Shown one piece after another: positions 5,858-25,323 of a stretch of 64,000 bases of DNA. Both the position numbers and the translations under genes were made by a program. Source of the DNA: Patescibacteria group bacterium (GTDB lineage: Bacteria > Patescibacteriota > Minisyncoccia > Phycocordibacterales > UBA12445); assembly GCA_003504275.1 (NCBI GenBank), contig DOAO01000007.1, forward strand, positions 75,535 through 139,534. Reading direction: 5' to 3'. Each line of letters begins with the position of its first letter. The stretch's first letter is position 1. The notes beneath the pieces were generated by a model. That model did not search any database. It saw only the letters and a list, made by a program, of their open reading frames with translations, and was not told the DNA's origin.

Positions 5858-6979
5858 ATGAAAATATTGTATTTAGAAAACATAAGAATGCCGACAGACC
5901 GTGCACACGGTATTCAAATAATGAAGACCTGCGAAGCTCTTTCAAGGCTCGGTGTAGAAGTTGAATTGGTGGTTCCGACAAGAGAAAATAATATCAAAAA
6001 AGACCCCTTTCTTTACTACAAAGTAGAAAATAATTTTACTATCAAAAAAATATATTCGCCCGATCTTGTGAGATTCGGTAAAACTGGAGGAATTGTGCAA
6101 TATATATTTTTTTCTTTTGCCTCTCTTTTTTATGCTTTAAACCAAAAGGCTGACATTTTTTATTCCAGAGATGAATTACCTATTTGGTTTTTGGGCTTCT
6201 TTAATAAAAAAGTTTTTTGGGAAGTTCATAACGGTAAATGGAATTTTCTTGTTTCAAGTCTTATGAAGAGGTGTGCTGGGGTGGTTGCAATATCGGGTGG
6301 CATAAAGAATTTTTTTAAAGATAAAGGTGTTCTTGAGGAAAAAATAATAGTAGCGCCAGATGCAGTAGATATTGATGATTTTTATTTGAATATAAAAAAA
6401 GAGGAAGCGAGAGACAGGGTTAAGCTTCCTAAAAACAAGAAGATTGTTATGTATACGGGACATCTTTTTGAATGGAAGGGAGCTGATACAATCGGCCAGG
6501 TTGCCAAAAATTTTAGCAACGATTATCTTTTCGTTTTTGTTGGCGGAACAGAAAAACATATAGAAGATTTTAAAAAGAGACATCTTTTTGATAATAAAAT
6601 ATTAATGGTTGGTCAGAAGTCTCACGAGGAAATACCTCTTTATCTGAAGAGTGCAGATGTGCTAGTTATTCCCAATAGCGCGAAGGAAGATGTCTCGCGA
6701 TTATATACATCGCCGATGAAGCTTTTTGAGTATATGGCGAGCGGGACCCCAATCATTGCCTCAGACCTGCCTTCCATAAGGGAGATACTGGATGATGACG
6801 GCGCTGTTTTCTTTAAGTCAGATGATTCCGAGAGCCTAACTAAAGCGATTAAAAAAGTCTTTGATAATCAGACCTTGGCTGATAAAATGGCCAGTATCTC
6901 AAGGGAAAATTCCAAGAATTACTCTTGGGACAAAAGAGCTGAAAAAATAAACTCTTTTTTGTTAAAAAATGGAATTTAA
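5858..6979 (+). CDS. glycosyltransferase family 4 (GT-B)
   Basis: C-terminal EX7E-like region PMKLFEYMASGTPIIASDLPSIREIL. Start moved to the ATG at 5858 (MKILYLEN), immediately after the upstream stop, rather than the ORF-track start at 5807, which overlaps the previous gene. Confidence 0.7.
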   Translation: MKILYLENIRMPTDRAHGIQIMKTCEALSRLGVEVELVVPTRENNIKKDPFLYYKVENNFTIKKIYSPDLVRFGKTGGIVQYIFFSFASLFYALNQKADIFYSRDELPIWFLGFFNKKVFWEVHNGKWNFLVSSLMKRCAGVVAISGGIKNFFKDKGVLEEKIIVAPDAVDIDDFYLNIKKEEARDRVKLPKNKKIVMYTGHLFEWKGADTIGQVAKNFSNDYLFVFVGGTEKHIEDFKKRHLFDNKILMVGQKSHEEIPLYLKSADVLVIPNSAKEDVSRLYTSPMKLFEYMASGTPIIASDLPSIREILDDDGAVFFKSDDSESLTKAIKKVFDNQTLADKMASISRENSKNYSWDKRAEKINSFLLKNGI

Positions 6980-7397
6980 AGAAAATATAAATCTAATAAA
7001 CAAGAGGGCTCGTGACCTTTATCAAAATGCCATGTTTATTAAATCTATTTTAGTAGGCTTTGTCGCCCTAGCAGTAGATCTTTCTTTAATATTTATTTTT
7101 ACCGATGTGTTTTTGTGGAATTATTGGATATCTGCAAATATCGCATTCATAATTACTATTTTGGTTAATTTCCTGTTGCAAAAATTTTGGACTTTTGGCG
7201 ATAATGTCGTCCACAGAACGAAGGCTCAACTATTTAAATTTTTTACTCTCTCTTTATTAAATCTTTTTGCAAACAGTATTTTAATGTATGTATTTGTAAG
7301 TTTGTTTGGCATATGGTATTTATTAGCCCAGACGGTTATAACGGCAATACTTTTTTTGTTTAATTTTGTGGTTTATAGATTTTATATATTTGTTTAA
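6969..7397 (+). CDS. GtrA-family membrane protein (polyprenyl-phosphate sugar translocase-like)
   Basis: 142 aa with 4 TM segments. Carries the GtrA signature (NFLLQKFWTF). Confidence 0.6.
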   Translation: MEFKENINLINKRARDLYQNAMFIKSILVGFVALAVDLSLIFIFTDVFLWNYWISANIAFIITILVNFLLQKFWTFGDNVVHRTKAQLFKFFTLSLLNLFANSILMYVFVSLFGIWYLLAQTVITAILFLFNFVVYRFYIFV

Positions 7398-7403
7398 AAT
7401 AAA

Positions 7404-8351
7404 ATGAAAATATCAATTGTTGTTCCTGTGTATAATGAAGCGAAGAGTTTGCCGGAGCTTTTTAATGAGATAAGGGCTATTTTACAAAAAGAAAAAATAG
7501 ACTATGAGATAATCGCAATTAATGACGGCTCTCGGGACAACAGTTGGGATGTTCTCAAAAAACTCGGGAGCGATGACAAGAGAATAAAAGCCCTTAATTT
7601 CAAGTGGAATAATGGTCAGACCGCCGCTATGTCTGCAGGAATAAGAGCATCAACAGGGGATGTTGTGATTCCGATAGATTCAGACCTTGAGAACGATCCT
7701 GCTGATATACCAAAACTTCTAAAGAAAATGGAGGAAGGTTTCACTGTGGTTTCTGGATGGAGAAAGGAAAGATGGAGTGGTTCCGCTTTTAGCAGGAAGA
7801 TTCCGTCGGTTATGGCCAACTGGCTCATTTCAAAAATAACAGGAGTGAAACTCCATGATTATGGTTGTACGCTCAAAGCTTACGATAGGGATATTATTTC
7901 TGAGGTAGAGCTGTATGGGGAGATGCACCGATTTATTCCGGCTTATGCCAAATGGAAGGGTGGGAGAGTGGCAGAAATACCTGTTAACTATAGACCAAGA
8001 AAATATGGCGAAAGCAATTATGGTATTTCAAGAACGTTTAGAGTTCTCTTGGATCTTGTCTTGATAAAATTTCTTGTTAAATATATGAATCGTCCAATGC
8101 ACTTCTTTGGTGGGTTGGGTTTTTTTAGCGTAATTTTAGGATTATTATCCGGAACCTTGGCGTTGGTTTTAAAGTATTCTTATGGAATAAGTTTTATTTC
8201 TACCCCAATGCCGGTCTTAACCACATTCTTTATAATCGTCGGTATTCAGATGGCAGCTATGGGTATATTGGCCGAGATGATAATGCGTACCTACTATGAA
8301 TCTCAAAGTAAAACCCCGTACTCAATAAAAGAGAAGATTAATTTTGATTAA
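7404..8351 (+). CDS. glycosyltransferase family 2 (polyprenyl-phosphate glycosyltransferase, GtrB/DPM-like)
   Basis: MKISIVVPVYNE...INDGSRDNS (GT-A DXD context) and a C-terminal TM pair, as in the dolichol-P-mannose synthase / ArnC / GtrB family. Confidence 0.75.
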   Translation: MKISIVVPVYNEAKSLPELFNEIRAILQKEKIDYEIIAINDGSRDNSWDVLKKLGSDDKRIKALNFKWNNGQTAAMSAGIRASTGDVVIPIDSDLENDPADIPKLLKKMEEGFTVVSGWRKERWSGSAFSRKIPSVMANWLISKITGVKLHDYGCTLKAYDRDIISEVELYGEMHRFIPAYAKWKGGRVAEIPVNYRPRKYGESNYGISRTFRVLLDLVLIKFLVKYMNRPMHFFGGLGFFSVILGLLSGTLALVLKYSYGISFISTPMPVLTTFFIIVGIQMAAMGILAEMIMRTYYESQSKTPYSIKEKINFD

Positions 8352-8376
8352 GTTGCGCTGTCTGCCCCCTGTTCTA

Positions 8377-8515
8377 CTTTGTCATCCGCACGAGTGTTGT
8401 CATCCCAGACTTGATCTGGGATCCACTAGCATTGGTGGTGAAACATGGATCCCAGATCAAGTCTGGGATGACAAAGGTTGTGTGTCATCCTCGCGAATGC
8501 GGGGATCCAGAAAGT
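8377..8515. repeat. nested palindromic intergenic element (MITE/REP-like) carrying GTCATCC...GGGATCCAGAAAG motifs
   Basis: Perfect 26-bp inverted repeat GTCATCCCAGACTTGATCTGGGATCC / GGATCCCAGATCAAGTCTGGGATGAC, each arm itself hairpin-forming. An outer imperfect inverted repeat (TGTCATCCGCACGAG / TCATCCTCGCGAATGCGG) flanks it. Confidence 0.6.
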
Positions 8516-8546
8516 TTTTATTAAAAAATCATAGAATAGTAAGAAC

Positions 8547-10415
8547 ATGTGTGGAATAACCGGATTTATAGGAAAAGGGACAAAAAACGACCTGGAAAAA
8601 ATGGTCGCCTCTATAAAGCACCGTGGTCCTGATGCACAGGGGCATTTTTGGAGCGAAGGCATCGCCCTAGGGCACACAAGGCTCAGTATCATAGACCTTT
8701 CTGAGACCGGCTCTCAGCCTATGTTTGATAATAAGAAAGAGATAGGTATCGTTTTTAATGGAGAAATATATAACTTTCCGGAGCTAAGAAAAGAGCTAGA
8801 GAAAAAGGGTTATGTTTTCATGGGTACTTCCGACACAGAGGCGATAATTTATCTATATAAGGAATTTGGCGAAAAATGTTTTGAAAAGATGAATGGGATG
8901 TTCGCTGTCGCCATATATGATTTCAAAAAAAATAAGCTCGTGCTCGCCAGGGATAGAATGGGAAAGAAACCATTATATTGGGGTATTTTTCAAGAGACTT
9001 TAATTTTTGGTTCCGAACTCAAGTCATTAATTTCCCATCCTCTTTTTAAAAAAGAGATTGATTTAAATTCTGTAAATAAATATCTTCAGTATGATTATGT
9101 TCCGTCACCTCATTCTATTTTTAAAAATGTTTACAAATTAGAACCGGCAAGTTATCTTCTTTTTGAAAAAGGTAAAATAGAGAAAAATAAATTCTGGAGA
9201 GCAGACCTCACTCCTAATAAAATTACCTTCAAGGAAGCGTTAGGGGAGTTTGATAGTAATATGAATAGTAGTGTCGCCTCAAGACTTGTTTCCGATGTGC
9301 CTCTCGGTATTTTTTTGAGCGGGGGATTAGATAGTTCCGCGATAGCTTATTATGCGCAGAAGAATTCCAAAGATAAGATAAAAACTTTTTCAATCGGTTT
9401 TAAGGAGGATAGTTTTGATGAATCCAAATATGCCAGACAGGTTGCAGAGCACTTAGGTACCGAGCATTATGAGAAGATTTTAAGTGCCAAAGATTCTCTT
9501 GATTTGATACCCAAAATAGCTGATATTCTGGATGAGCCCGTTGCTGATGCTTCTATAATACCGACATACTTACTTTCTAAATTTACTAAAGAGAGGGTAA
9601 CTGTCGCACTAGGCGGTGATGGGGGTGACGAACTTTTTGCTGGATATCCGACATTCCAGGCTGATTCAATAGTTGGTCTTTATGAGAGCATCCCCGAATT
9701 TATGAGGAAGGGGATAATTGAAAAGGTAATAAAAAGTATTCCCGCATCAGACAAGAATTTTAGTCTGGGATTCAAGCTTAAAAAATTTATTAGCGGGTTG
9801 GGTGTTAATAAAAAATACTTACACCAAACATGGCTCGGCAGTTTTGGAAAAGAAGAGAGAAAAAATTTATTTAAAAATGAAGCTTGGGAAAAGTTAGTTA
9901 ATGAGAATGAGTTTGAGGATATAGATACATATATGAATGAAGTAAAAGACAGTGACCCGAGGAATAAGATTCTATATTTATATATGCGAACATATCTTAT
10001 GGACCAGGTACTTGTGAAGGTTGACAGGGCTAGTATGGCGAACGCCATGGAGGTCAGAGCACCATTCCTAGATACAAGTATTGTCGAATTCGCCAACTCT
10101 CTGCCTTACATATATAAATATAAGAATTTTCAGACCAAATATATACTTAAGAAGCTTATGGAAGGTAAACTTCCGCAGAATATTATACATAGAAGCAAGA
10201 AAGGTTTCGGTATTCCACTCGGCAAATGGCTCAAAGAGGACTTGAGGGGATTTTGTGATAAAACATTGTCTAAGGATAATTGTGATAAATTCGGCTTGTT
10301 TAATTATGAATTTATTAATAAACTTAAAAACGAGCACTTTTCTGGAGTTAAGGACAATAGGAAGTTGCTCTGGAATTTAATAGTATTATTCCTGTGGAGG
10401 GAAAAGTGGATTTAA
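8547..10415 (+). CDS. asnB: asparagine synthase (glutamine-hydrolysing) family amidotransferase
   Basis: N-terminal MCGITG (Ntn Cys2), SGGLDSS PP-loop, and ~620 aa length. Confidence 0.8.
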   Translation: MCGITGFIGKGTKNDLEKMVASIKHRGPDAQGHFWSEGIALGHTRLSIIDLSETGSQPMFDNKKEIGIVFNGEIYNFPELRKELEKKGYVFMGTSDTEAIIYLYKEFGEKCFEKMNGMFAVAIYDFKKNKLVLARDRMGKKPLYWGIFQETLIFGSELKSLISHPLFKKEIDLNSVNKYLQYDYVPSPHSIFKNVYKLEPASYLLFEKGKIEKNKFWRADLTPNKITFKEALGEFDSNMNSSVASRLVSDVPLGIFLSGGLDSSAIAYYAQKNSKDKIKTFSIGFKEDSFDESKYARQVAEHLGTEHYEKILSAKDSLDLIPKIADILDEPVADASIIPTYLLSKFTKERVTVALGGDGGDELFAGYPTFQADSIVGLYESIPEFMRKGIIEKVIKSIPASDKNFSLGFKLKKFISGLGVNKKYLHQTWLGSFGKEERKNLFKNEAWEKLVNENEFEDIDTYMNEVKDSDPRNKILYLYMRTYLMDQVLVKVDRASMANAMEVRAPFLDTSIVEFANSLPYIYKYKNFQTKYILKKLMEGKLPQNIIHRSKKGFGIPLGKWLKEDLRGFCDKTLSKDNCDKFGLFNYEFINKLKNEHFSGVKDNRKLLWNLIVLFLWREKWI

Positions 10416-10426
10416 TTTTTTAAAAA

Positions 10427-11194
10427 ATGTCATCAAGCGAACGATTCGGATACGAGTGGGATACTTATTCATTTATGGATGAGAATTATGAAAAACAGTT
10501 CTTAAACTGGACTAGTCCTCTACCTAAAAGTTTTTTCAAAGATAAGTTTATTCTAGACGCTGGATGTGGAATGGGAAGGAATAGCTACTGGCCACTTAAA
10601 TGGGGAGCAAAAGAGGTTGTTTCATTTGATCTTGATGAGCGCTCTGTAAACAGGGCGAAAGAAACCTTGAGGGAGTTTAAGAATTCGGAAGTTTTTCTAA
10701 AAAGTATTTATGAAATAGATTGGAAAGATAAGTTTGATGTGGCTTTTAGTATTGGAGTAATACATCACTTGAAAGATCCTAAAAAAGCCCTCCAAAATAT
10801 TGTGAATGCTTTAAAGAAAGATGGCACCTTGCTTATATGGGTATATAGTTTTGAGGGTAATGAATGGATACCAAGGTATATTGATCCAATAAGAAAAAAT
10901 ATTACATCAAAGCTTCCTGTGGGATTGGTTCATTTTTTGAGTTATTTTTGCTCGGTACCGTTATGGACTTTTGTTAAGATTTTTAGAGGACCAACGGGAT
11001 ATTTAAAACAACTCTCAACTTTTGATTTTTGGCATATTCACAGTATTGTTTTTGATCAGCTTATACCAGATGTTGCAAATTATTGGTCAAAGAAAGATAT
11101 TGAAAAATTATTTTCTGGATTAAATATAAAAGATGTTTCTATTAAGATGCCTCCTAATGGGAGCGGTTGGACAATAATAGGATACAAAAAATAA
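10427..11194 (+). CDS. class I SAM-dependent methyltransferase
   Basis: ILDAGCGMGRNSY motif I and VAFSIGVIHHLKDP. Confidence 0.55.
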   Translation: MSSSERFGYEWDTYSFMDENYEKQFLNWTSPLPKSFFKDKFILDAGCGMGRNSYWPLKWGAKEVVSFDLDERSVNRAKETLREFKNSEVFLKSIYEIDWKDKFDVAFSIGVIHHLKDPKKALQNIVNALKKDGTLLIWVYSFEGNEWIPRYIDPIRKNITSKLPVGLVHFLSYFCSVPLWTFVKIFRGPTGYLKQLSTFDFWHIHSIVFDQLIPDVANYWSKKDIEKLFSGLNIKDVSIKMPPNGSGWTIIGYKK

Positions 11195-11198
11195 TTTT

Positions 11199-11777
11199 AT
11201 GACAAAGGAAATTAAAAAATTAAATCTTGGTGCCGGTGAATTTAAAAAGGATGGATATGTAAATGTTGATTGGCAAGATCTTACAAAACCGGATGTAAAG
11301 CACGATCTCAATGTATTACCATATCCATTTGAAAACAATACTTTTGATTTGATTGAGGCTTTTCATGTTCTGGAACACTTAGATAAACCGTTTAGCATCA
11401 TGTCGGAGCTTCATAGGATTTTGAAACCGGGGGCTATTTTGATAATAAAGGTACCTCATTTTAGTAGGGGGTTCACACACGCTGAACATTCACATGGTTT
11501 TGATGTTACTTTCCCGCTATATTTCAATAGGAATTTCACAAAATCTGGTTATTTTGGGACTGATTTTAAATTAAAAAAATTGAAGCTTAGGTGGTCGGCT
11601 TTTATACACCTCATGCCTTCTATGGGTTACGGGAAGATAAGTCTAACATTGGTTAAAATTGTTGATTTTATTTTCTCGTTTCTGGCTAATCTTAGTCCGA
11701 ATTTTTGCAGTAGAATGTGGTGTTTTTGGGTTGGTGGTTTTGAGGAAATAGAATTTGAATTCATAGCACAAAAATAA
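11199..11777 (+). CDS. class I SAM-dependent methyltransferase (Methyltransf_11-like)
   Basis: LNLGAGEFKKDGYVNVD...FHVLEHLDKP...LKPGAILII. Confidence 0.5.
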   Translation: MTKEIKKLNLGAGEFKKDGYVNVDWQDLTKPDVKHDLNVLPYPFENNTFDLIEAFHVLEHLDKPFSIMSELHRILKPGAILIIKVPHFSRGFTHAEHSHGFDVTFPLYFNRNFTKSGYFGTDFKLKKLKLRWSAFIHLMPSMGYGKISLTLVKIVDFIFSFLANLSPNFCSRMWCFWVGGFEEIEFEFIAQK

Positions 11778-11778
11778 A

Positions 11779-12468
11779 ATGTCTATATTTAGGGAATATT
11801 TTAAAAAATGGCCTATTTTTTACTATTTTGTCGGTACTGTTTTTGGCCCTGTTCTACTTGCGGGGTTAAACCCGCGAGGTTTTTTGAAAAAATATAAAAT
11901 AGACGGAAAGGTTCTTAATATTGGTTCTGGTCCAAGAAGAATTGCCTCCGGGGTTATAAATATGGACATAGAAAAATATGAGGGAGTAGATATTGTTGGT
12001 GATGCAACAAATATGCCTTTTGACGATAATACTATTTCTGCTGTGATTTGTGATAACGTCTTAGAACATGTAAAAGATCCACAGAAGGTGGCAGGGGAGA
12101 TAAATAGGGTTTTAAATGTTGGCGGTGTTGCATATATAAGTACTCCTTTTATTTACCCATTCCACTCTTCCCCATACGACTTCACTAGATGGACCAAACA
12201 GGGATTGGAAAAATTATTTAGTGATTTTGATATCGTGGAAATTGGCTCAAGGTCGGGACCGTTTTCTTCGCTAGTGGTTTGCCTATGTTATCTTTTTGCC
12301 ACGATATTTTCTTTTGGAAATAGTACTATTTATTGGTTTTTGGTAGATCTTTTTATGTTTGTCTTCTTTCCTATAAAATTTTTAGATGTAATCTTTAATT
12401 TTTGGCCCAACTCAATAAATATGGCCGCAGTATTGTATGTAGTTGTCAGAAAAAAAGATGGTCAATAA
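11779..12468 (+). CDS. class I SAM-dependent methyltransferase
   Basis: LNIGSGPRRI...ICDNVLEHVKDP...LNVGGVAYI. Confidence 0.5.
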   Translation: MSIFREYFKKWPIFYYFVGTVFGPVLLAGLNPRGFLKKYKIDGKVLNIGSGPRRIASGVINMDIEKYEGVDIVGDATNMPFDDNTISAVICDNVLEHVKDPQKVAGEINRVLNVGGVAYISTPFIYPFHSSPYDFTRWTKQGLEKLFSDFDIVEIGSRSGPFSSLVVCLCYLFATIFSFGNSTIYWFLVDLFMFVFFPIKFLDVIFNFWPNSINMAAVLYVVVRKKDGQ

Positions 12469-14254
12469 ATATTGGGCAAATCTTAAATTTTTTGTTTCTG
12501 AGCACTTAATAGCTATCTTTTTTGCTTTACTTGTCGGAACTTTGTGCTCACTTCCACAGTTTTTAGCTATCTGGTCTCTGGGGGAACAATATAAAGGAAT
12601 TCCTTTTTTGTATAGTGACTCAGAGTTTGTTTATTTGGCTAGAATACAAGAGATATTTGATGGACATTTGTCCGCAAGTTCACATGTTTTTTATGAATAT
12701 AAGGATTCAGTTTCAATAACACCCCCTTCTGGTGAATATTTTTATTTTTTAGGAAGTAAACTATTGGGAATAAGTATTATCGGATTTGTTTATTTGAGTA
12801 AGCTAATTTTTCCCGCCATTCTTTTTCTTCTCATATATTTTCTTGTTTTACTTCTAACAAAGAAAATAGAAAGTGAGTGTGGTCTCGGTCAAAAATTAAC
12901 GGCTATTCTAGCCGGATTAACCTCCACTATAGGGTATGAATTTTTTAATTATCGCACCCTGATACCACTATTGTCGGGTAATACTCAAAATTTAAATTTA
13001 AATATATGGACAAGGCTTATTAATCCCATAACTGGTGCTATTTTATTATTTTTATTCTTTATATTTTTATTAAAAATAATAGAAGGTAAAAGGAAATTGA
13101 TAATACCAGCGGGAATATTACTTTTTTTGATGATTGGCTACATATTCTCCTTCGGAATTTCGCTATTAACTTGTTTGATATTGAGTATTATTTTTGCAGT
13201 AAAAAAGGAATACCGGATATTTAAAGATCTTCTCTCGGTAATTTTATTTTCCACCATCATCTTTGCTGTTTATATTTTTATATCATTAATGACCAACCCC
13301 TATCCGACAGATTCTCTGAGGATGGGATTGTTTTTGACCCATACTGTTTTGTTAAACAAGCTATTGCTTTTAGTCATTTCTTTTTTTGCTGTTTCGTCTC
13401 TTTATTTTGTTAAAAATAAGACCTTTTTTAAAGATGAGAGAAATAATTGGTGGCTATTTCTTTTGTCTGTTGTTTTGGCCTGTTTTATTTCCTACACACA
13501 GCAGGTTGTGACAGGTATGACTGTTTGGCCACAACACCTCGTCCAATATACAATACCGATTTCTATTATAACTGTTTTAGTTTTATTATTTAACTTTTTC
13601 TCTAATAATTGGAGAAAAATATATATCCCTTTTTTAATAATATTAATTTTTTCAAATGTTTTTATGAGTTTAATGAGTCTATTAACATATAAAAATATTT
13701 TAATTGATTTTATTGACGTTCAAAAATATGGAGAAGCTGTTAATTGGATTAAGTTAAATGCCGAAAAGGACTGTGTTATTTTGTCGTCAGATAATAGAAT
13801 GAATCGGATAATACCGGCACTAACCAGATGTAATGTTTATTTATCCGATTGGGTTTTTTCCGGTGTTCCTATGGACAGAGTAAGGCATAATTATTTTTTG
13901 TATCTTAGACTAAAGGGGATTACCCCAGACACCATAGACAGCTATCTTTCTGAAAATAAAGAAGAGGTCTCCAATCTTTTTTTTAGAGACTGGAAAGATT
14001 TGTTTATGGACAATAATGATCCGTGGCTTAATAAAATAAGTAATAAAAAAGAAATAGAAAATTGGAAGGAAGAATTGAATTTAGATTTGGCGTCCGATTT
14101 CAAAAAATTTATGAATAATGACCTTTTAGAACAAATAAAAAAATATAGAATTGACCATGTTATAATAAACGGCGCCGATATTGGCAAATATAAAGAATTA
14201 AAATTGAATTTAATAGAAGAAACAGGTGATTTTAAAATCTATAAATTAAATTAA
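12458..14254 (+). CDS. polytopic membrane protein, putative GT-C-type glycosyltransferase
   Basis: About 12 predicted TM helices followed by a soluble C-terminal domain. Sits in a GtrA/GT2 neighbourhood. Start set at the internal ATG (MVNKYW); the ORF-track start at 12443 overlaps the upstream gene further. Confidence 0.35.
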   Translation: MVNKYWANLKFFVSEHLIAIFFALLVGTLCSLPQFLAIWSLGEQYKGIPFLYSDSEFVYLARIQEIFDGHLSASSHVFYEYKDSVSITPPSGEYFYFLGSKLLGISIIGFVYLSKLIFPAILFLLIYFLVLLLTKKIESECGLGQKLTAILAGLTSTIGYEFFNYRTLIPLLSGNTQNLNLNIWTRLINPITGAILLFLFFIFLLKIIEGKRKLIIPAGILLFLMIGYIFSFGISLLTCLILSIIFAVKKEYRIFKDLLSVILFSTIIFAVYIFISLMTNPYPTDSLRMGLFLTHTVLLNKLLLLVISFFAVSSLYFVKNKTFFKDERNNWWLFLLSVVLACFISYTQQVVTGMTVWPQHLVQYTIPISIITVLVLLFNFFSNNWRKIYIPFLIILIFSNVFMSLMSLLTYKNILIDFIDVQKYGEAVNWIKLNAEKDCVILSSDNRMNRIIPALTRCNVYLSDWVFSGVPMDRVRHNYFLYLRLKGITPDTIDSYLSENKEEVSNLFFRDWKDLFMDNNDPWLNKISNKKEIENWKEELNLDLASDFKKFMNNDLLEQIKKYRIDHVIINGADIGKYKELKLNLIEETGDFKIYKLN

Positions 14255-14262
14255 AATATATA

Positions 14263-15399
14263 ATGAAAATTTTATATATATTGGAAAATATGGATGGCAA
14301 AGATGGGTGGAGTACTTATGGTCTTTCTCTTATTGATGAGGTTATGGCACTTGGGATGGAGGTTCGTATTATTTCTTCAAAAAATTCGAAAAAATCAAAC
14401 GAGAAGTCGTCTTTTTTGTATTTTTTAAAACCACCAAAGGATTATTTGTTAAATATTTTTAATTGTTTCTCAGCCTCCCGAAAGATAAGGGTGGTAATTG
14501 AAGAGTTTAATCCAGACATTATTCATTTCGTAGTTGAACCTTATTCAAACATACTTTTATTTTTGAGAAGGAATAAAAAAGAGAAATATATTTTAACCGT
14601 GCATGGAACTTATTCATATATTCCTGAACTATTTGACAACCCCATTAAAAAAATTGTATCCGCTCTTATCTGTGGGGTTGTTTTTAATAGTATCGATAAA
14701 ATTATTGCAGTAAGCAACTTCACTTCAAATTACCTGAAAAGCAAAGCCCCATACCTAAGGGATAAAATAATTGTAATTAAAAATGGAATAAAAATAAATA
14801 AAAACGCAAGGACAGTGAAACAAGAAGGCGGTGTAAAGAAAATTACCTATATAGGAGCCGTAAAACCAAGAAAGGGTCTCTACGAAGCTGTGGAGGCTCT
14901 GGGTATTTTTAAACAAAACAGCAATACTCCATTTATTTTTAATATAATTGGTTCATACCACGGAGGTGATTCATACTATGAGAAGATTTTAAACAAAATT
15001 AAAATCAATAAGCTTGAAGAAAATATAAAATTTCTCGGCAGGGTGAGTGACGAAGAAAAAAATTCGTTGTTGTCTGATTCCGATCTGTTTATAATGACTT
15101 CAATAAATAATGGAAAGGACTTTGAAGGTTTTGGTTTGGTATACCTAGAAGCAAATAGTTTTGGTGTACCATGTATTGGCCCCAACGATTCTGGTGCCGT
15201 TGATGCTATAATGGAAGGTGTTAGTGGATTTGTAGTTAATCCTCGCAATTCGAGAGAAATTTGCGATAAGGTAGATTTTATAATTAATAAGAAAGCCATA
15301 AAAAGAGAGGATTGCGTCGATTGGGCTAAAAAAAACGATATAAAGAATAGAATATTGGAAACCGTTGAAGTTTATAAAGATATAAATAATAACAACTAA
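14263..15399 (+). CDS. glycosyltransferase family 4 (GT-B)
   Basis: EGFGLVYLEANSFGVPCIGPNDSGAVDAIMEGVSGFVVNP is the EX7E region of GT4 enzymes. Confidence 0.7.
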   Translation: MKILYILENMDGKDGWSTYGLSLIDEVMALGMEVRIISSKNSKKSNEKSSFLYFLKPPKDYLLNIFNCFSASRKIRVVIEEFNPDIIHFVVEPYSNILLFLRRNKKEKYILTVHGTYSYIPELFDNPIKKIVSALICGVVFNSIDKIIAVSNFTSNYLKSKAPYLRDKIIVIKNGIKINKNARTVKQEGGVKKITYIGAVKPRKGLYEAVEALGIFKQNSNTPFIFNIIGSYHGGDSYYEKILNKIKINKLEENIKFLGRVSDEEKNSLLSDSDLFIMTSINNGKDFEGFGLVYLEANSFGVPCIGPNDSGAVDAIMEGVSGFVVNPRNSREICDKVDFIINKKAIKREDCVDWAKKNDIKNRILETVEVYKDINNNN

Positions 15400-15418
15400 G
15401 AATAATTTTTTTCAAAAA

Positions 15419-16558
15419 ATGTCCTTTTTGTGTAAAAAAAAAATTGTGCTGAGTGCTTCATATGGGTTAGGAAACCTGGGAGATGAGGCAATTTGTAAGA
15501 CTTTGATAGAAGATCTTTTTTCTACTGGTTTGGTTAAAAAAATAACTGTTTTGGTTTTTGATAAGGTTGTTTTTATAAATAATCACCCTGAATTGATAGA
15601 AGAAAAAAGGGTTAGTATAAGAGAGTTTTTTGTTGGCCCCAAGGTATTATTATCTATTACAAAAATATATGATTTTTTGTTTTCAATTTATGATTTGGTT
15701 TACTGTGATTTATTTATTTTGGGTGGTGGTGGTTTAATAAGAAATAGAAACGATTGGTTTAGATTTTATATTCAACCATTAAAAATAGTACAATTTTTTC
15801 ATCGAAAAACGGCGATTTTTTCTATTGGAGTTGATGCGGTTGAGAGGGAAGACGTCATCTTAGGGGTTAACAAGATAAAAAGGGTAGATTTTTTCTCTGT
15901 GAGAGACAATGAATCTAAAAATAATTTGCTAGCAATAAATAAGAATTTTTCTGATGAATTTATAAAAGTGATACCTGATCCGGTTTTTCATATGAAAAGT
16001 ATTTATAATCATTCTCCGGAAAATAAAAAGATCGGCTTTAATTTAACTTCGCCGGATCTTCTGAGCCTTGGTGGAAAAGCGTTTGATAAAGGTAAATTTT
16101 TAAATGATCTGTCTGGAATATTTAATGAATTATTTACAAAAGAAAAGTTTGAGCTTGTTTGTTTACCTACAGATACCCAAAAAGATTCTTTGTTTATGAG
16201 CGACTTCATTTCTTCTTTAAATAAAGAAATACACGTTACTTTAATTAAATTAGAAACCCCAGAGCAATTTTTAAAAGAAGTTTCTCGTTGTCGCTGTTTT
16301 ATTGGTATGAGAATGCACTCATTAATAATGTCTTCAATAATAGAAGGTTTGCCGATATTGGGTATAGTTTATGCCAAAAAGGTTGAAAATATGTTTGGGG
16401 AGATCGGTTTTAAAAATATTGTTTCCGCTGATATAATTTCCGGCAGGGATAGTATCATTAAGTTTTTGAGTAGGCCGGAAGACTATGTTTTTGACTTCAA
16501 ATCTACGAAAGATAGTTCTTACGATGGCACAAAGAAGATCCAATTTTTATTAAGATAA
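15419..16558 (+). CDS. polysaccharide pyruvyl transferase family protein
   Basis: N-terminal GYGLGNLGDEAI and GGGGLI motifs typical of PS_pyruv_trans. Confidence 0.5.
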   Translation: MSFLCKKKIVLSASYGLGNLGDEAICKTLIEDLFSTGLVKKITVLVFDKVVFINNHPELIEEKRVSIREFFVGPKVLLSITKIYDFLFSIYDLVYCDLFILGGGGLIRNRNDWFRFYIQPLKIVQFFHRKTAIFSIGVDAVEREDVILGVNKIKRVDFFSVRDNESKNNLLAINKNFSDEFIKVIPDPVFHMKSIYNHSPENKKIGFNLTSPDLLSLGGKAFDKGKFLNDLSGIFNELFTKEKFELVCLPTDTQKDSLFMSDFISSLNKEIHVTLIKLETPEQFLKEVSRCRCFIGMRMHSLIMSSIIEGLPILGIVYAKKVENMFGEIGFKNIVSADIISGRDSIIKFLSRPEDYVFDFKSTKDSSYDGTKKIQFLLR

Positions 16559-16568
16559 TATATAAATT

Positions 16569-18425
16569 ATGTGCGGAATTTTGGGAATCGTGAGTTCAAA
16601 AGATGAGAATATCTCTGAAAGTGTTTTTAGGGAATCTCTTTCTTTGATGAGTCACAGAGGACCAGATGGTATGAATATAAAGAAGAATGTAGGGTGTATT
16701 CTTGGTCATGTTAGATTATCCATAATAGATCTTTCTGATTTAGGGAAACAACCAATGTACTGTGAGTTTAATAATAAAAAACTCATGATTGTTTTTAATG
16801 GAGAAATTTACAATTATTTAGAAATTAGAGACTCGTTACTAAAAGAAGGTTTTGTATTTAAAACAAAAACAGACACAGAGGTTCTTGTTGCCGCTTATTC
16901 TTTGTGGGGAGAAAATTGTTTAGATAGGCTCAACGGAATGTTTTCTTTTGCTATTTGGGATGTTAATAGGAGGGAGTTATTTGCAGCTAGGGACAGAATA
17001 GGAAAAAAACCTTTCTTTTACTATAAACATGGAGATACTCTTGTTTTTTCTTCAGAAATAAAGGCAATAAGAAATATTTTTCCACAAATACAAATGGATC
17101 CGGAAAAATTTTTTCAGTATTTAGTTTTACCAAATAATTATAATTCTGGGCCAATTGAAACATTTTTTAAAAACATCAAACAACTTCCCGCCGGGCATTT
17201 TATAAAATACAAAGAAGGAGGAGATTTTTTAATAAAAAAATGGTGGAGCTTTTCTGATTTATTAAAGAATTCAAAAAACGAACAGTTTTTACCAGGGGAG
17301 TTTAATTCGATTTTTCTCGACACCTTTAATGATGCTGTTAAAATAAGGACCAGGAGTGATGTAAAAATAGGATTAAGTTTAAGTGGTGGGATTGATTCAA
17401 CCTCAATATTGAGCGCACTTTCTAAAATTTATGACGAAAAAGGTGGGGATATATTTACGTTCAGTCTTTGTCACCCCGGAAGCAGTACTGATGAAAGGGG
17501 TCTCGTTCAGGACACAGTAGATTATTTTAAAAATAAAACTGGCACAAAAATTATTCCGTCTTTTTTTGACTTTCCCAAAACCATATCAGAAGAAGATGTA
17601 ATTAAGTTTTGTAAAATTCACGATGAGCCCGTTAGAAGTTTCGATGTTTATAATCAATTCTTTTTAAATAAAAAAGTACATGAATCTGGGATTAAGGTTC
17701 TGTTGAGTGGGCAAGGGGCAGATGAATTTTTTTGGGGGTATCCACGTTATTATAATGTTAAGGCCCTAGACGATCTAAAAAGAATAAAAGTTATTAATTT
17801 TATTAAGGATGTTTCATATATATCCAGTTTTTATAACAAAAAGTTTCATTCTGTGGTTTTGAATACTTTCTCAATGATGTTTCCTAGCTTATATTTTAAT
17901 AAAAGATTGGATTATTTTAGTCATAATTATTTTTTGAATAAAGATTTATTGAAGCCGGAGCTTCTTTTCAATAGATATAATTTTCTTAATCCCACCGATG
18001 CTAACGCCTTTAGGGTGGCAGAATTAGATTACTCTAGTTTGCCATCTCTCCTGAGAGATGAAGATATAAATAGTATGAGTTTTTCAGTTGAGACAAGAGC
18101 CCCCTATTTAGACTATAGAATAATGGAACTAGCAACGAAGATACCAATAGAAGAATGTTTAAAAAATAGCCAGACTAAGTATTTCAATAGATCTATTTTT
18201 TCCGAATTAATACCTAAAAATATCGCGTGGAGGAAAACAAAGTCCGGTTTTTATGAAAAAAGAACAATGAGATATCTTAATAATTTTGAGATGTTTGCAT
18301 TAAAGGAAATAAAGAAATCAGATTTTATTAAAAATTTTATTAGAATAGGAGATGTTGATTTGAACAACTCGGAATTGCTTTGGAAATTGTTTAACGTTGC
18401 CGTGTTAGATATTAAACATGATTAA
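16569..18425 (+). CDS. asnB: asparagine synthase (glutamine-hydrolysing) family amidotransferase, second paralog
   Basis: MCGILG N-terminus and SGGIDST PP-loop. Clearly diverged from the copy at 8547. Confidence 0.75.
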   Translation: MCGILGIVSSKDENISESVFRESLSLMSHRGPDGMNIKKNVGCILGHVRLSIIDLSDLGKQPMYCEFNNKKLMIVFNGEIYNYLEIRDSLLKEGFVFKTKTDTEVLVAAYSLWGENCLDRLNGMFSFAIWDVNRRELFAARDRIGKKPFFYYKHGDTLVFSSEIKAIRNIFPQIQMDPEKFFQYLVLPNNYNSGPIETFFKNIKQLPAGHFIKYKEGGDFLIKKWWSFSDLLKNSKNEQFLPGEFNSIFLDTFNDAVKIRTRSDVKIGLSLSGGIDSTSILSALSKIYDEKGGDIFTFSLCHPGSSTDERGLVQDTVDYFKNKTGTKIIPSFFDFPKTISEEDVIKFCKIHDEPVRSFDVYNQFFLNKKVHESGIKVLLSGQGADEFFWGYPRYYNVKALDDLKRIKVINFIKDVSYISSFYNKKFHSVVLNTFSMMFPSLYFNKRLDYFSHNYFLNKDLLKPELLFNRYNFLNPTDANAFRVAELDYSSLPSLLRDEDINSMSFSVETRAPYLDYRIMELATKIPIEECLKNSQTKYFNRSIFSELIPKNIAWRKTKSGFYEKRTMRYLNNFEMFALKEIKKSDFIKNFIRIGDVDLNNSELLWKLFNVAVLDIKHD

Positions 18426-19359
18426 AATTAGAGAAAATTGTCCCGTTTGTAGGAGTAGCGAAATCTCAGACATAAGGAGCAGGTACGATTTTACACTTTC
18501 TTTTTGTAAAAAGTGCGATTTTATGTTTGTTAAAGAAATATTTAATTATGATGATTTTTACAATTCTAAATATTTCCGTAATTATGCTAATTCAGAGGCC
18601 TTATTTGATAAGAACAAAGATTCTATAGAGGGGGAGTGTAGTTATGAAAAAAATAAAGACACTCACAAGATTAGCTATGAAGGTGGCTTTCGCGCGTTGA
18701 AAAAATCTATTGACCCACGTGGCGCTACTTATCTAGATATCGGGTGTGCCGAGGGTTATGGGGTTGAGTTGGCTAAAAATTTTGGGGCTATTCCATATGG
18801 GCTAGACGTTTCTAAGGATGCCGTTGAAAAATGTAGGGAAAGTGGTTTAGGGGACATGTTTGTAGGAGAGCTATCAAGTTGCCGATTTTCTAATATAAAA
18901 ATGGCGACCATGATAGATGTTCTGGAACATATGCAAGACCCTGTTTCTAACTTAAGGGCACTTAATAGAATAATGGAAACTGGAGGTTTTGTTTTTGTTA
19001 AGAATAATTTATTTTCCCTAGACTTGTTTATGAATGACAATGATTATTTTTTAAGAAATTTCGAACCACCCTACCACTGTAGTTATTTTTCCGAGAGTAA
19101 GATGGTAGAGATCTTTAATGATAATGGATTTAAATTAGTATACAGAAGACCCAATTTTGTGCTTCATGTTTTTCAAATTTACGGATATCTTAAGGGGCTT
19201 TTTAATCGGAAACACAGGGATCTTTACATGGAAAATAAAAAGAAGAGATTACCGGGATTAATGGCCAAAAAAATTAGCAAAGGAGGTTTTTGGGGTAGAA
19301 AGATGGAGGAGTTTTTCCCGTCGGGCTTTGTCTTTAAAAAGATAAAAAATATTAGTTAA
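18418..19359 (+). CDS. class I SAM-dependent methyltransferase with N-terminal Zn-ribbon
   Basis: CPVC...CKKC zinc ribbon. YLDIGCAEGYG motif I. IDVLEHMQDP. Confidence 0.55.
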   Translation: MIKIRENCPVCRSSEISDIRSRYDFTLSFCKKCDFMFVKEIFNYDDFYNSKYFRNYANSEALFDKNKDSIEGECSYEKNKDTHKISYEGGFRALKKSIDPRGATYLDIGCAEGYGVELAKNFGAIPYGLDVSKDAVEKCRESGLGDMFVGELSSCRFSNIKMATMIDVLEHMQDPVSNLRALNRIMETGGFVFVKNNLFSLDLFMNDNDYFLRNFEPPYHCSYFSESKMVEIFNDNGFKLVYRRPNFVLHVFQIYGYLKGLFNRKHRDLYMENKKKRLPGLMAKKISKGGFWGRKMEEFFPSGFVFKKIKNIS

Positions 19360-19368
19360 ATCTACTGT

Positions 19369-20748
19369 ATGAAAAAAACAATATTTATAACCAGTTTTCA
19401 CAGTATAATCTCAAAAAATATTTTTAATTCTGATGTTTTAAAGATATTGTCTGAAGATAAGAATATAAATATTGTTATTTTTGTTCCCTCCCATAAAAAA
19501 GAATTATTTGAAAAATATTACAAGAGAGATAATATAATCTTTGAGGGGATAAATCTTGAACCCTTAATTAACTCCAAGATAAACACCTTTTTTTCAAGAA
19601 TATCTTTTTTGCTTATGGATTCTCACTATCTTTGGTATAAAAAGGCGGAAAGGTTGGAGACTGCAAAAAACTTGAGGGGATATTTAAAATATTATTATGA
19701 AATTGTTTTTACAAAAATACTCAGCGGACACCGATTTGTAAATAACTTTTATAGGTTTTTTGATTACCTATTTACACCAAAGAATTTTTTCAAAAAATAT
19801 TTTGATGCATATAATCCTAACATGGTTTTTGTAACAGATCTTTTTGATAAGACTGATTCCGCCTTCTTAAGAGAAGCTAAATCTAACAAGGTTTTTTCAA
19901 TAGGAATGGTTAGATCTTGGGATAATTGCTGGAGTAAGGGGCTGATGAGAGTTTTGCCTGACAAATTTATTGTGAATAATGAAGTGATCAAAGATGAGAT
20001 CGTTTCAATGCACAATGCAGATAAAAAAAATATATTTGTTGGCGGGTTGCCACAATTTGATAAATTTTTATCTATGGACTTGGGCTCAAGAAAAGATTTT
20101 TTTGAAAAGTTGAAAATAAGGGAAGATAGAAGATTATTAATGTTTTCCCCATTAGGATATTCTTTATCGGACGTTGATTGGGAGATACTGCAGATTTTTA
20201 AAGATGCAATTAAAAATGGTGACCTACCTGAAAATATTCAATTTTTAATCAGAATGCATCCTGGCAGACCGTTGCCACTTAAGGATTTCACCCCAGACGA
20301 TCATTTTTATTTTGATAAACCAGGAATCGGAGAAGGAAAGGACGTGGAATTTCGACCAGACGACGTTGAGCATTTAGCCAAATCACTTTATTTTTCAGAG
20401 ATAATAATATGGGTAGCAACGACCCTGGGCTTAGATGCAGCTGTCTTTAATAAACCACAAATAGTTGTTAATTTTGATGGCTGGGAAAAACGCGAATATA
20501 TCAATAGTGTACGTAGATATCATAATGAGAACCATATGAGAAAAATGATAGACTGCGGAGGTGTAAAAGAGGTTTTAGACAGAGAATCTCTTATTGAGGC
20601 TATAAATAAATATTTAAACAATCCTTCTCTTGATCAGACCGGTAGAGACGCAATGGTAAAACAACAGCTCTATAAAATAGACGGTAGGTCAGGAGAGAGA
20701 ATAGCCAATTTTATTTTGAGTGAATTAGAAAAAATAGACAAAAAATAA
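19369..20748 (+). CDS. hypothetical GT-B-like protein (possible CDP-glycerol/capsule-type glycosyl- or glycerophosphotransferase)
   Basis: C-terminal IIIWVATTLGLDAAVFNKPQIVVNF resembles the Glyphos_transf / capsule biosynthesis family. Weak. Confidence 0.3.
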   Translation: MKKTIFITSFHSIISKNIFNSDVLKILSEDKNINIVIFVPSHKKELFEKYYKRDNIIFEGINLEPLINSKINTFFSRISFLLMDSHYLWYKKAERLETAKNLRGYLKYYYEIVFTKILSGHRFVNNFYRFFDYLFTPKNFFKKYFDAYNPNMVFVTDLFDKTDSAFLREAKSNKVFSIGMVRSWDNCWSKGLMRVLPDKFIVNNEVIKDEIVSMHNADKKNIFVGGLPQFDKFLSMDLGSRKDFFEKLKIREDRRLLMFSPLGYSLSDVDWEILQIFKDAIKNGDLPENIQFLIRMHPGRPLPLKDFTPDDHFYFDKPGIGEGKDVEFRPDDVEHLAKSLYFSEIIIWVATTLGLDAAVFNKPQIVVNFDGWEKREYINSVRRYHNENHMRKMIDCGGVKEVLDRESLIEAINKYLNNPSLDQTGRDAMVKQQLYKIDGRSGERIANFILSELEKIDKK

Positions 20749-20751
20749 ATT

Positions 20752-21468
20752 TTATTTTTTATTACTCTCGAGAAGCTTCATTTTTTGTTCCGCAATAAAC
20801 CAGTCCTCTTCCGTATTTATATCTACGTTGTATTTGTCGTCCATTGTGAATAGTTCAACTTTTTCTCCATATAAATTAGGAACATCTTCATATAGATTTT
20901 TGGGTCTCAGTAGATAAATAATATCGTTTCTTGAGTAGCATTCTGGTAAATCTTGGCTTCTTGTTATTATTTTCTTAAGTGGTTCTCCTGTAAATAAGGT
21001 AACTTTGTCGTCTTTATCTTTTTTTAATATCCAATAGGGATTATTGTTTGCTGTTGCCCTAATAACAGAGACCACTGAATCTGGTTTTTTGTCCTCAAAT
21101 ATTTTTATTGCTTCATCTATCTGTTCCGTCGTTCTGGTTGGATTTGTGGGTTGTAGTAGTGCTATTAAGTCGGGTTGGTAATTTTGATTTTGCTTCAACC
21201 ATTCATATGCGTGTTTGAGGACAGGTTCTATTCCCATTTTGTCTCCTGATAGTTCCTCTGGTCTAATGAAAGGAACTTCGGCTCCATATTCTCTTGCTAT
21301 GTCTGCAATTTTAACGTCGTCGGTTGAGACGATAACTCTATCTAATTTGCTCTTAATGGCACTCTCTATAGACCATGCAATAAGTGGCTTATTTAATAAA
21401 ATCTTTTCATTTTTATGAGGAATTCTTCTTGAGCCACCCCTTGCTGGTATTACAGCTAATATTTTCAT
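20752..21468 (-). CDS. neuA: acylneuraminate (nonulosonic acid) cytidylyltransferase, CMP-NulO synthetase
   Basis: MKILAVIPARGGSRRIPHKN is the CMP-NeuAc / CMP-Pse / CMP-Leg synthetase N-terminus. Confidence 0.75.
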   Translation of the reverse strand: MKILAVIPARGGSRRIPHKNEKILLNKPLIAWSIESAIKSKLDRVIVSTDDVKIADIAREYGAEVPFIRPEELSGDKMGIEPVLKHAYEWLKQNQNYQPDLIALLQPTNPTRTTEQIDEAIKIFEDKKPDSVVSVIRATANNNPYWILKKDKDDKVTLFTGEPLKKIITRSQDLPECYSRNDIIYLLRPKNLYEDVPNLYGEKVELFTMDDKYNVDINTEEDWFIAEQKMKLLESNKK

Positions 21469-25170: not shown

Positions 25171-25323
25171 TTATTTTCAAAGTCCTAAGTTGACAAAAGA
25201 TTAACATCTTATTAATTATTTGTCAAAAAATAAAAATGATTTTCGTTGACGCTACTTTATTAATGTGATATCTTCATTCTTAGGTCTTGGAACTTTTACA
25301 ATAAAAAAGAAGGGGGAGATATT

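Follow-up and report, generated by a model that had tools for sequence, protein, structure and literature searches.

Two AsnB-family genes of a Patescibacterial glycan island as probable sugar-acid amidotransferases in two distinct envelope modules

We report the analysis of two AsnB-type genes, here called AsnB-1 (8547..10415) and AsnB-2 (16569..18425), both on the + strand of a 64-kb stretch of contig DOAO01000007.1 from a Patescibacteria group bacterium; 'the window' below means the whole of this stretch. It is probable, in our assessment, that both genes encode glutamine-hydrolysing, ATP-dependent carboxylate amidotransferases which act on building blocks of envelope glycans and not on aspartate, and that they do so in two modules. 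Each gene lies in a conserved sugar-modification module of its own and therefore sugar-acid amidation, not asparagine synthesis, is its most likely function. AsnB-1 is a predicted glutamine- and ATP-dependent amidotransferase resembling WbpS and the eps_aminotran_1 family and is coupled to a family 2 glycosyltransferase (GT2), and AsnB-2 is a predicted AsnB-family amidotransferase coupled to a pyruvyl transferase, a family 4 glycosyltransferase (GT4) and a methyltransferase.

The two open reading frames (ORFs) encode 622 and 618 amino acids, respectively, each from an ATG start, and in both a GATase_6/7 glutaminase domain is followed by the Asn_synthase domain PF00733 (Pfam; E=1.7e-100 in AsnB-1 and 4e-47 in AsnB-2), so that the two AsnB-type paralogues of about 620 amino acids named in a preliminary description of this DNA are exactly where it placed them. 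BLASTP aligns the two over 599 columns at 32% identity (E=1e-70); they are therefore truly diverged homologues and, as was also said of them, they are surrounded by glycan genes. A tblastn search of the window, for which AsnB of E. coli, AsnB of B. subtilis and the two ORFs served as queries, found no third copy. All genes from 456 to 20748 run in the + direction, a few bases apart or overlapping by as little, and the island as a whole holds GT4, GtrA and GT2 genes, at least nine S-adenosylmethionine (SAM) methyltransferases, a pyruvyl transferase, a TagB-like transferase, a cytidylyltransferase of the CMP-nonulosonic acid (CMP-NulO) type, two radical SAM proteins, NeuB, Wzx and Wzy_C. The partner genes are spaced as in an operon, lying 6-11 bp apart or overlapping by 8 bp. 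GC content around AsnB-2 (0.30-0.32) is below that around AsnB-1 (0.37). The AsnB-2 protein is 100% identical to one from Parcubacteria group bacterium GW2011_GWF2_38_76, in keeping with the earlier premise of a reduced genome.

Judged by family models and by alignment, neither ORF looks like a housekeeping asparagine synthetase. The model for AsnB proper (NF006949, cutoff 499 bits), with which E. coli AsnB as positive control scores 1050 bits, gives 326.5 bits for AsnB-1 and 251.1 for AsnB-2. Both ORFs pass TIGR01536, 'asparagine synthase (glutamine-hydrolyzing)', at 507 and 374 bits for a cutoff of 267; B. subtilis AsnB, a meso-diaminopimelate (mDAP) amidotransferase, passes it as well (617 bits), and the model is therefore not specific for function. 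The top NCBIfam match of AsnB-1 is TIGR03108, eps_aminotran_1 (581.8 bits, residues 1-614 aligned to positions 1-621 of the 628 in the profile), which is likewise the top match of nine of the ten AsnB-1 relatives sampled (518-681 bits). AsnB-2 matches this profile weakly (279 bits) and only over residues 1-401, its N-terminal two thirds. For both ORFs the closest solved structure is the hydroxyamidotransferase TsnB9 (7ylz), rather than AsnB.

Both ORFs were aligned to E. coli AsnB, the numbering of which is used for residue positions, with residue roles taken from PMC6748925 and PMC8554201. The equivalents of Cys1, Arg49, Asn74, Gly75, Glu76 and Asp98 are kept in both, as are the SGGxD PP-loop, Asp351, Glu352, Tyr357, Lys429 and Lys449; the Cys nucleophile, the Arg49/Asn74/Glu76/Asp98 glutamine pocket, the PP-loop and Lys449 are kept in the relatives of the two ORFs too. 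The conserved residues are Cys2, R45, N71, E73, D96, the PP-loop SGGLD, D361, E362, K531 and K551 in AsnB-1, and Cys2, R49, N77, E79, D102, SGGID, D385, E386, K537 and K558 in AsnB-2; the machinery of both half-reactions, as far as an alignment can tell, looks intact. The aspartyl amino group is held in human ASNS by a pocket built from the counterparts of Glu348, Asp351 and Asp384 (PMC6748925). In place of Glu348, AsnB-1 has Asp358, with Asp in all 32 of its GT2-linked relatives, and AsnB-2 has Gln382, with Gln in all five aligned members of the pyruvyl-linked clade. Asp384 is replaced in both ORFs in both of two alignments; the Arg387 column holds Val or Lys in AsnB-1 and, depending on the alignment, Arg496 or Asp in AsnB-2; and the Thr-Thr-x-Arg motif is absent from both ORFs when aligned with E. 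coli AsnB. Between Tyr357 and Asp384 lie 114 residues in AsnB-1, 96 in AsnB-2, 102 in B. subtilis AsnB and 26 in E. coli AsnB.

That one or both genes are real asparagine synthetases feeding an auxotrophic cell, their location in the island being a coincidence, we regard as highly improbable. Such a function would agree with the TIGR01536 scores of both ORFs and with the presence of all catalytic residues of the two half-reactions, and the long-form paralogues of B. subtilis complement an E. coli asparagine auxotroph, according to a result cited in PMC8554201. Against it, TIGR01536 accepts an mDAP amidotransferase equally, both ORFs fail the AsnB-proper model and have lost Glu348, Asp384 and the TTxR motif, and both genes lie in tightly spaced, co-directional glycan operons the gene order of which is kept in distant organisms.

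The assignment of AsnB-1 to a glycan pathway is carried by its partnership with the gene upstream, a GT2 (7404..8351, +; PF00535) that is predicted to be an ArnC/GtrB-like polyprenyl-phosphate sugar synthase. The best NCBIfam match of this protein is ArnC (NF007986; 2e-59, residues 2-312 of 315), followed by PgfS and AglJ; its score of 201 against an ArnC equivalog cutoff of 529 shows that it is not ArnC itself, and its C-terminal hydrophobic helices at 234-259 and 261-295 are typical of polyprenyl-phosphate glycosyltransferases. Related loci are referred to here by L numbers. A GT2 of 312-315 amino acids stands immediately upstream in every Patescibacterial orthologue locus that was read (L003, L004, L005 and L006), and in L004 a GtrA gene separates the GT2 from AsnB. 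A scan of genome contigs for which AsnB-1 alone was the query returned one locus, L006 (Minisyncoccia), and the family alignment, used against metagenomes, recovered 80 further loci at identities of 35-56%. By tblastn, 29 of the 71 loci with enough upstream DNA have a GT2 homologue (40-61% identity) ahead of the AsnB-1 relative and in the same orientation, ending 5-160 bp before it. Sorted by identity to AsnB-1, the adjacency occurs in six of seven loci at 50% or above, three of eight at 43-50%, 11 of 22 at 40-43%, nine of 22 at 37-40% and none of 12 below 37%. Overall, a GT2 adjoins AsnB in 32 of about 40 relatives, on contigs with a GC content of 0.30-0.69; many of these contigs are at 0.53-0.69 and the pair is thus not confined to the Candidate Phyla Radiation (CPR). 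On a 511-kb high-GC contig (L040) a GT2-AsnB-GT4 cassette and a 683-amino-acid protein with 11 transmembrane segments stand alone among uvrC, rsgA, trpC and ruvB, an isolation among housekeeping genes which argues that the cassette is a self-contained unit.

In neighbour-joining (NJ) trees all 32 GT2-adjacent proteins fall into one region and none lies outside it, with bootstrap values of 99 for the CPR clade and 100 for a 20-member high-GC clade. Neither ORF clusters tightly with housekeeping AsnB, the outcome that the preliminary description had named as fatal to its proposal. The trees also bear on the idea that AsnB-1 is a peptidoglycan mDAP amidotransferase of the LtsA, B. subtilis AsnB or L. 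plantarum AsnB1 type, working on lipid II next to a GT2 that is there incidentally, which we consider improbable. AsnB-1 can be aligned over its whole length with B. subtilis AsnB (34% identity) and has the same long-form architecture with an 'extra loop' of about 100 residues past Tyr357 (features as described in PMC8554201); it carries Thr/Lys at the Asp384/Arg387 columns, as the B. subtilis enzyme does, and is kept across the Patescibacteria like a core envelope gene, and LtsA acts on lipid-linked substrates (PMC7920481). Yet B. subtilis AsnB (the sequence used being 100% identical to P0241) forms a separate clade with three Bacillaceae relatives (bootstrap 100), outside all AsnB-1 clades up to 108 of the 114 leaves, and its mean identity to the GT2-linked set is 33%, compared with 41% between AsnB-1 and the high-GC GT2-linked members. 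The profile scores of the two are reversed, B. subtilis AsnB preferring TIGR01536 (617 bits) to TIGR03108 (498) and AsnB-1 preferring TIGR03108 (582) to TIGR01536 (507); Glu348 is kept in B. subtilis AsnB where every GT2-linked protein has Asp; and an mDAP function leaves the frequent GT2 adjacency unexplained. These points weaken the mDAP reading without overturning it, because the shared extra loop and the Thr/Lys pattern show a likeness of architecture.

We return to the amidation of a lipid-linked or nucleotide-linked sugar acid as the preferred role of AsnB-1, and to the remaining genes of its operon. Upstream of the GT2 is a small membrane protein of the GtrA family (6969..7397, +; PF04138, 5.9e-21, 75 bits against a cutoff of 26) with about four hydrophobic segments; members of this family are the flippase-associated component of three-component glycosylation systems. 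Downstream, a class I SAM methyltransferase (10427..11194, +; Pfam) starts 11 bp past the AsnB-1 stop, and a homologue of it stands directly downstream of AsnB in 12 of the GT2-adjacent loci. Two more SAM methyltransferases follow (11199-11777 and 11779-12468, both +; Pfam), the first of which has homologues (63-70% identity) adjoining AsnB-1 orthologues in L003 and L007. The last gene of the set (12443..14254, +) encodes a polytopic membrane protein of 603 amino acids, a predicted extracytoplasmic polyprenyl-phosphate-sugar transferase of the GT-C fold. It has no match in Pfam (E<=1), by phmmer against the PDB or in a PDB profile search, and its family (P0361-P0510), with 717 representatives at 50% clustering, carries no Pfam annotation. 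In an alignment-based model this family is predicted confidently to fold as a GT-C glycosyltransferase (a single-sequence AlphaFold2 model had a pLDDT of 44 and was not used), and E85 and E98, in the stretch between helices 59-72 and 96-108, are near-invariant. Homologues of the GT-C protein occur downstream of AsnB-1 in L004 and L005. With GT2, GtrA and GT-C all present, the region 6969-14254 thus contains a complete three-component polyprenyl-phosphate route in which AsnB-1 and three methyltransferases are embedded. Large polytopic proteins in general do not discriminate, being found near 20 of 32 GT2-linked AsnB genes and in 25 of 47 other loci, because Wzx and Wzy are counted among them as well.

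Two further observations concern this operon. The spacer between the GT2 and AsnB-1 (8352-8546) is 195 bp long, the spacing in most related loci being 5-20 bp. In it lies an inverted repeat of 29 nt without mismatches, whose arms (8397-8425 and 8446-8474) enclose a loop of 20 nt; this repeat occurs nowhere else in the window and may be either a stem-loop with a regulatory role or a small hairpin element that was inserted here. A UDP-sugar dehydrogenase or epimerase was considered as a conserved partner of AsnB-1 and rejected, such genes lying near the cassette in few loci only by tblastn.

The second module is defined by a different and stricter association. A member of the polysaccharide pyruvyl transferase family (15419..16558, +; PF04230, 4e-26, 93 bits against a cutoff of 25.3) lies 10 bp upstream of the AsnB-2 start; it scores 93 bits against the 213 required for CsaB (TIGR03609) and is therefore taken as a family member of unassigned specificity. 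Such a gene stands upstream of the AsnB-2 relative in six of the six loci at 37% identity or above (the window, L001, L002, L088, L089 and L092; GC 0.29-0.48), ending 3-140 bp, or one small ORF, before it. Downstream, a SAM methyltransferase of 313 amino acids (18418..19359, +; Pfam) overlaps the AsnB-2 stop by 8 bp at its start and has an orthologue (39-46%) in the same place in five of the six (the window, L001, L002, L088 and L092). The GT4 glycosyltransferase that begins the module (14263..15399, +; Pfam) has orthologues in L001, L002 and L092 that precede the pyruvyl transferase, and in L092 (458-2746) the two are fused into one protein of 762 amino acids, with both tblastn matches in the same frame. 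The invariant pairing and this fusion together suggest that GT4, pyruvyl transferase, AsnB-2 and methyltransferase act successively on one residue. Among AsnB homologues at 36% identity or below (L090, L091 and L093) the pyruvyl module is gone and other glycan contexts take its place: UGDH (UDP-sugar 6-dehydrogenase) with PglD and DegT; flagellin with a radical SAM protein and a methyltransferase, in Wolinella; and a cluster with a second AsnB paralogue. The Wolinella gene, an AsnB-2-like gene (34%) at the end of a W. succinogenes contig (L091), is a possible flagellin-glycan amidotransferase.

Behind this module come the NulO genes, so that AsnB-2 is physically tied to them in four of the six loci (the window, L001, L088 and L089); the contigs of L002 and L092 end early, which limits this count. 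They begin with a TagB/Glyphos_transf-like transferase (19369..20748, +; PF04464, 8e-9), a candidate NulO transferase with a BFO_1060-family glycosyltransferase domain (5.5e-12), which is kept after AsnB-2 and the methyltransferase in L001, L088 and L089. A cytidylyltransferase of the CMP-NulO synthetase type (20752..21468, -; PF02348) is kept in L001 and L089 and scores 166 bits with PseF (TIGR03584), below the cutoff of 205.7. A B12-binding radical SAM protein (22484-24139, -) and a SPASM radical SAM protein (24351-25154, -) travel with the NulO genes, with orthologues of the pair at 53-67% identity in L001 and L089, and are followed by a NeuB-family nonulosonic acid synthase (25324..26187, +; PF03102, 3.5e-81), for which the NeuB and PseI equivalog models give 270 and 222 bits, both below cutoff. 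A Wzx-type polysaccharide flippase (26238..27488, -; PF13440 and PF01943) closes the set, its orthologues flanking the module in L001, L002 and L092. The B12-binding protein, which lies with its partner between the CMP-NulO synthetase and NeuB, is weakly similar to P- and C-methyltransferases, and the conservation of the pair suggests a C-methylated or otherwise unusual nonulosonic acid. NeuB itself is short (287 amino acids, without an SAF domain), and a 163-amino-acid ORF on the opposite strand (25252-25743), overlapping its 5' part, is probably spurious.

These neighbours raise the question of whether AsnB-2 acts on the NulO and not on the pyruvate ketal, either by amidation at C1 or by conversion of an N-acetyl to an acetamidino group with subsequent N-methylation; we think this rather unlikely. 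NeuB, the CMP-NulO synthetase, the TagB-like transferase and the two radical SAM proteins follow AsnB-2 in the window, L001, L088 and L089, the methyltransferase overlaps its stop codon, and the Wolinella relative is found in a typical setting of flagellin glycosylation by NulO. The only invariant partner, on the other hand, is the pyruvyl transferase, in six of six loci as compared with four of six for the NulO genes. Moreover, CMP activation and glycosidic transfer of a NulO need a free C1 carboxylate and anomeric centre, so that C1 could be amidated only after transfer. The acetamidino variant follows the preliminary description in its analogy with PseA of Campylobacter. PseA (Cj1316c) is a PP-loop N-acetyl sugar amidotransferase of the WbuX type, which has no Ntn (N-terminal nucleophile) glutaminase domain and yields an amidine, and enzymes of the WbuX/PseA family receive their ammonia from HisH/HisF-like partners; we know of no amidine synthase in the AsnB family. 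Neither ORF matches a PseA/WbuX-type model (NCBIfam, E<=0.001), and the window annotation contains no imidazole-glycerol-phosphate-synthase-like (HisH/HisF-like) partner gene. The analogy with PseA thus fails and the formation of acetamidino groups is unlikely, whereas the general direction of that proposal, the amidation of glycans, is borne out by the failure of the AsnB-proper model and by the conserved glycan modules.

The two genes also differ in their history. Database relatives of AsnB-1 at 57-86% identity number more than 120, and those with names belong nearly all to the Patescibacteria, Paceibacterota or Parcubacteria. The nearest relatives of AsnB-2 are at 47, 44, 40, 39 and 37% identity, below which matches at about 36% are spread widely over Bacteroidota, Clostridia, Wolinella and archaea. 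AsnB-1 is vertical and widespread across the Patescibacteria and AsnB-2 is sporadic. The NJ trees place the two in different clades and, with different partners and histories as well, they did not arise by duplication within the genome. Glycan clusters often carry two different AsnB-family genes, with second copies from yet other clades, as at L002 14100-15788, L005 2360-4192, L090 11066-12928 and L093 9034-10950 and also in L066, L077 and L081.

Our proposal builds on what was observed or computed, namely the integrity of the domains, the family placement, the conserved neighbourhoods and the GT4-pyruvyl transferase fusion, together with the modelled GT-C fold; from neighbourhood and family we infer the probable identity of each carboxylate, the order of the steps and the acceptor. 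We take the first module to extend from 6969 to 14254 and the second from 14263 to 19359, with NulO genes then running to 27488. In the first module the ArnC-like GT2 would charge polyprenyl phosphate with a sugar on the cytoplasmic side of the membrane. AsnB-1 would adenylate the carboxylate of this sugar, most likely a hexuronic or N-acetylhexosaminuronic acid, and ammonia tunnelled from the Cys-1 glutaminase site would displace AMP to give the amide, either at the nucleotide-sugar stage, as proposed for WbpS, or on the lipid-linked sugar, as with LtsA. The adjacent methyltransferases may modify the sugar further, GtrA would help to flip the lipid-linked product and the 603-amino-acid GT-C protein would transfer it to an extracytoplasmic acceptor. 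In the second module the GT4 would add a sugar, the pyruvyl transferase would add a pyruvate ketal, AsnB-2 would amidate a carboxylate and the overlapping methyltransferase would act after it. We rank the pyruvyl carboxylate first as the substrate of AsnB-2, because a pyruvate ketal brings a carboxylate with it; the other candidates are a uronic acid and the NulO at its C1 carboxylate.

Several points weigh against this proposal. An aspartate side activity is possible, given that TIGR01536 is passed and that the B. subtilis paralogues complement an asparagine auxotroph. The 582 bits of AsnB-1 fall short of the curated TIGR03108 cutoff of 816.9, which was set for the XrtA/PEP-CTERM equivalog and is reached by none of the ten relatives sampled. 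The phylogeny had been suggested as a comparison with both genuine AsnB and WbpS-type enzymes; the trees cover the first part of it, with E. coli AsnB and B. subtilis AsnB as their only references. Deep nodes have bootstrap values below 5% and for this reason we do not claim that the GT2-linked group is monophyletic. The GT-C family of the window accompanies the cassette in three loci only when searched with a hidden Markov model, so that the GT-C partner is not conserved at the level of the family. An intact UGDH is near the cassette only in a few related loci (L003, L057), and in the window there is no intact one, only a truncated remnant (28959-29834) that covers profile positions 71-297 of 413, without the N-terminal Rossmann start and the C-terminal domain. 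A RhuM/Fic-Doc toxin-like gene (27953-28966) abuts the 5' end of this fragment and, together with the partial match, makes the UGDH look decayed at the insertion of a mobile or toxin gene. With no intact dehydrogenase in the window and few beside related cassettes, the uronic-acid substrate is drawn by analogy. For the second module, we know of no reported amidated pyruvate ketal, and a literature search for one found none.

Read jointly, the two modules can be given a more specific form, which we put forward tentatively. AsnB-1 would belong to an undescribed branch of the Arn/Gtr-like pathways, widespread in the Patescibacteria and present also in high-GC phyla, in which a uronic acid is amidated and methylated on polyprenyl phosphate and the neutral uronamide is delivered by an unannotated GT-C enzyme, and AsnB-2 would make an unreported amidated and possibly N-methylated pyruvate ketal beside a NulO.

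Other features of the window touch these modules less directly. Within the island, a 569-amino-acid protein (2771-4480) has no Pfam match and is uncharacterised, its C-terminal part bearing a weak, sub-cutoff likeness to NanM-type sugar O-methyltransferases (TIGR04371, 39 bits), and an uncharacterised 325-amino-acid protein (1788-2765) shows only a faint Glyco_trans_1_2 match. The remaining window is bacterial housekeeping, including SecA, an IF-2 of 500 amino acids, ClpB and four tRNAs. A protein of 1389 amino acids (46952-51121), in which a lamin-tail domain and right-handed beta-helix/NosD repeats are combined with a peptidoglycan-binding domain at the C-terminus, may be a large surface protein of this episymbiont-type bacterium. 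Scans for promoters and terminators gave counts no higher than in shuffled sequence.

The surface chemistry of the Patescibacteria (CPR), which are attached to host cells in life, is almost uncharted, and for it the AsnB-1 and AsnB-2 modules offer two concrete cassettes of proposed charge-neutralising glycan modification. Public data hold about 10,000 'asparagine synthase' annotations in both families (at least 8000 candidates per search), some of which may be read as amino-acid biosynthesis, inflating the apparent anabolic capacity of reduced genomes. The membrane family of 717 clusters, so far unannotated, gains a predicted fold and role and, if the proposal is true, lipid-linked amidation extends the LtsA precedent from peptidoglycan to secondary glycans.

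Sugar amidotransferases of the AsnB family are already known, and it is the couplings to GT2, GtrA, methyltransferase and GT-C and to pyruvyl transferase, GT4 and methyltransferase that appear undescribed; literature searches for AsnB with ArnC, for pyruvyl transferase with asparagine synthase, and for asparagine synthase or synthetase in the CPR returned nothing relevant. WbpS of P. aeruginosa, WbqG of E. coli O121 and PGN_1234 of P. gingivalis are placed in the eps_aminotran_1 family; deletion of PGN_1234 abolishes the glucuronamide form of the linking sugar of the type IX secretion system, and WbqG is reported to be required for N-acetylgalactosaminuronamide (GalNAcAN) (PMC7468200). A wbpS mutant of Helicobacter pullorum has an altered N-glycan, which contains N-acetylhexosaminuronamide (HexNAcAN) (PMC6025236), and the b-Cool locus of Bordetella, for a glycan with two GalNAcAN residues, encodes an AsnB homologue (PMC12407052). 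AsnB-1 and AsnB-2 share with WbpS, WbqG and PGN_1234 the Ntn glutaminase and PP-loop synthetase domains and a length of about 620 amino acids, and AsnB-1 shares also the location in a glycan cluster; unlike WbpS, which is accompanied by the soluble UDP-sugar enzymes WbpO and WbpP, AsnB-1 has as its partner an ArnC-like GT2, with GtrA, GT-C and methyltransferases.

E. coli AsnB and human ASNS have the same fold, glutaminase residues, PP-loop, Asp351/Glu352 and Lys429/Lys449, with chemistry by an acyl-adenylate and tunnelled ammonia, but are only 26-30% identical to the two ORFs, which have some 70-90 additional residues where the acceptor binds. PseA resembles the two ORFs in being a PP-loop, ATP-dependent enzyme that adds nitrogen to a glycan building block in a NulO context. 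The long form, the extra loop and the lack of Asp384/Arg387 equivalents are shared with the mDAP amidotransferases LtsA of C. glutamicum, AsnB of B. subtilis and L. monocytogenes and AsnB1 of L. plantarum. These enzymes work on an envelope precursor carried by a polyprenyl lipid on the cytoplasmic side of the membrane (PMC7920481, PMC8554201, PMC5485061), LtsA being an AsnB homologue that amidates lipid-linked peptidoglycan precursors (PMC7920481), and by analogy they are the best mechanistic precedent for lipid-linked carboxylate amidation of the kind proposed. They differ from AsnB-1 in forming a separate clade, at 33-34% identity, in which Glu348 is kept. To our knowledge, they have no ArnC-like GT2 partner.

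The closest parallel to the organisation of the first module is found in the Arn (ArnC/ArnD/ArnEF/ArnT), Gtr (GtrA/GtrB with a Gtr-type GT-C) and Rgt (RgtE with RgtA-D/F) systems. RgtE makes bactoprenyl-phosphate-galacturonic acid for GT-C transferases (PMC7663294), from which it follows that uronic acids can travel on bactoprenyl phosphate. The window likewise has an ArnC-like GT2, a GtrA-family protein and a GT-C protein in one operon, next to the gene of a soluble tailoring enzyme, for which ArnD is the counterpart in the Arn pathway; it differs from all three systems in that the tailoring is assigned to an AsnB-family amidotransferase and methyltransferases, which a literature search found described for none of the three, in an organism that presumably has no lipid A.

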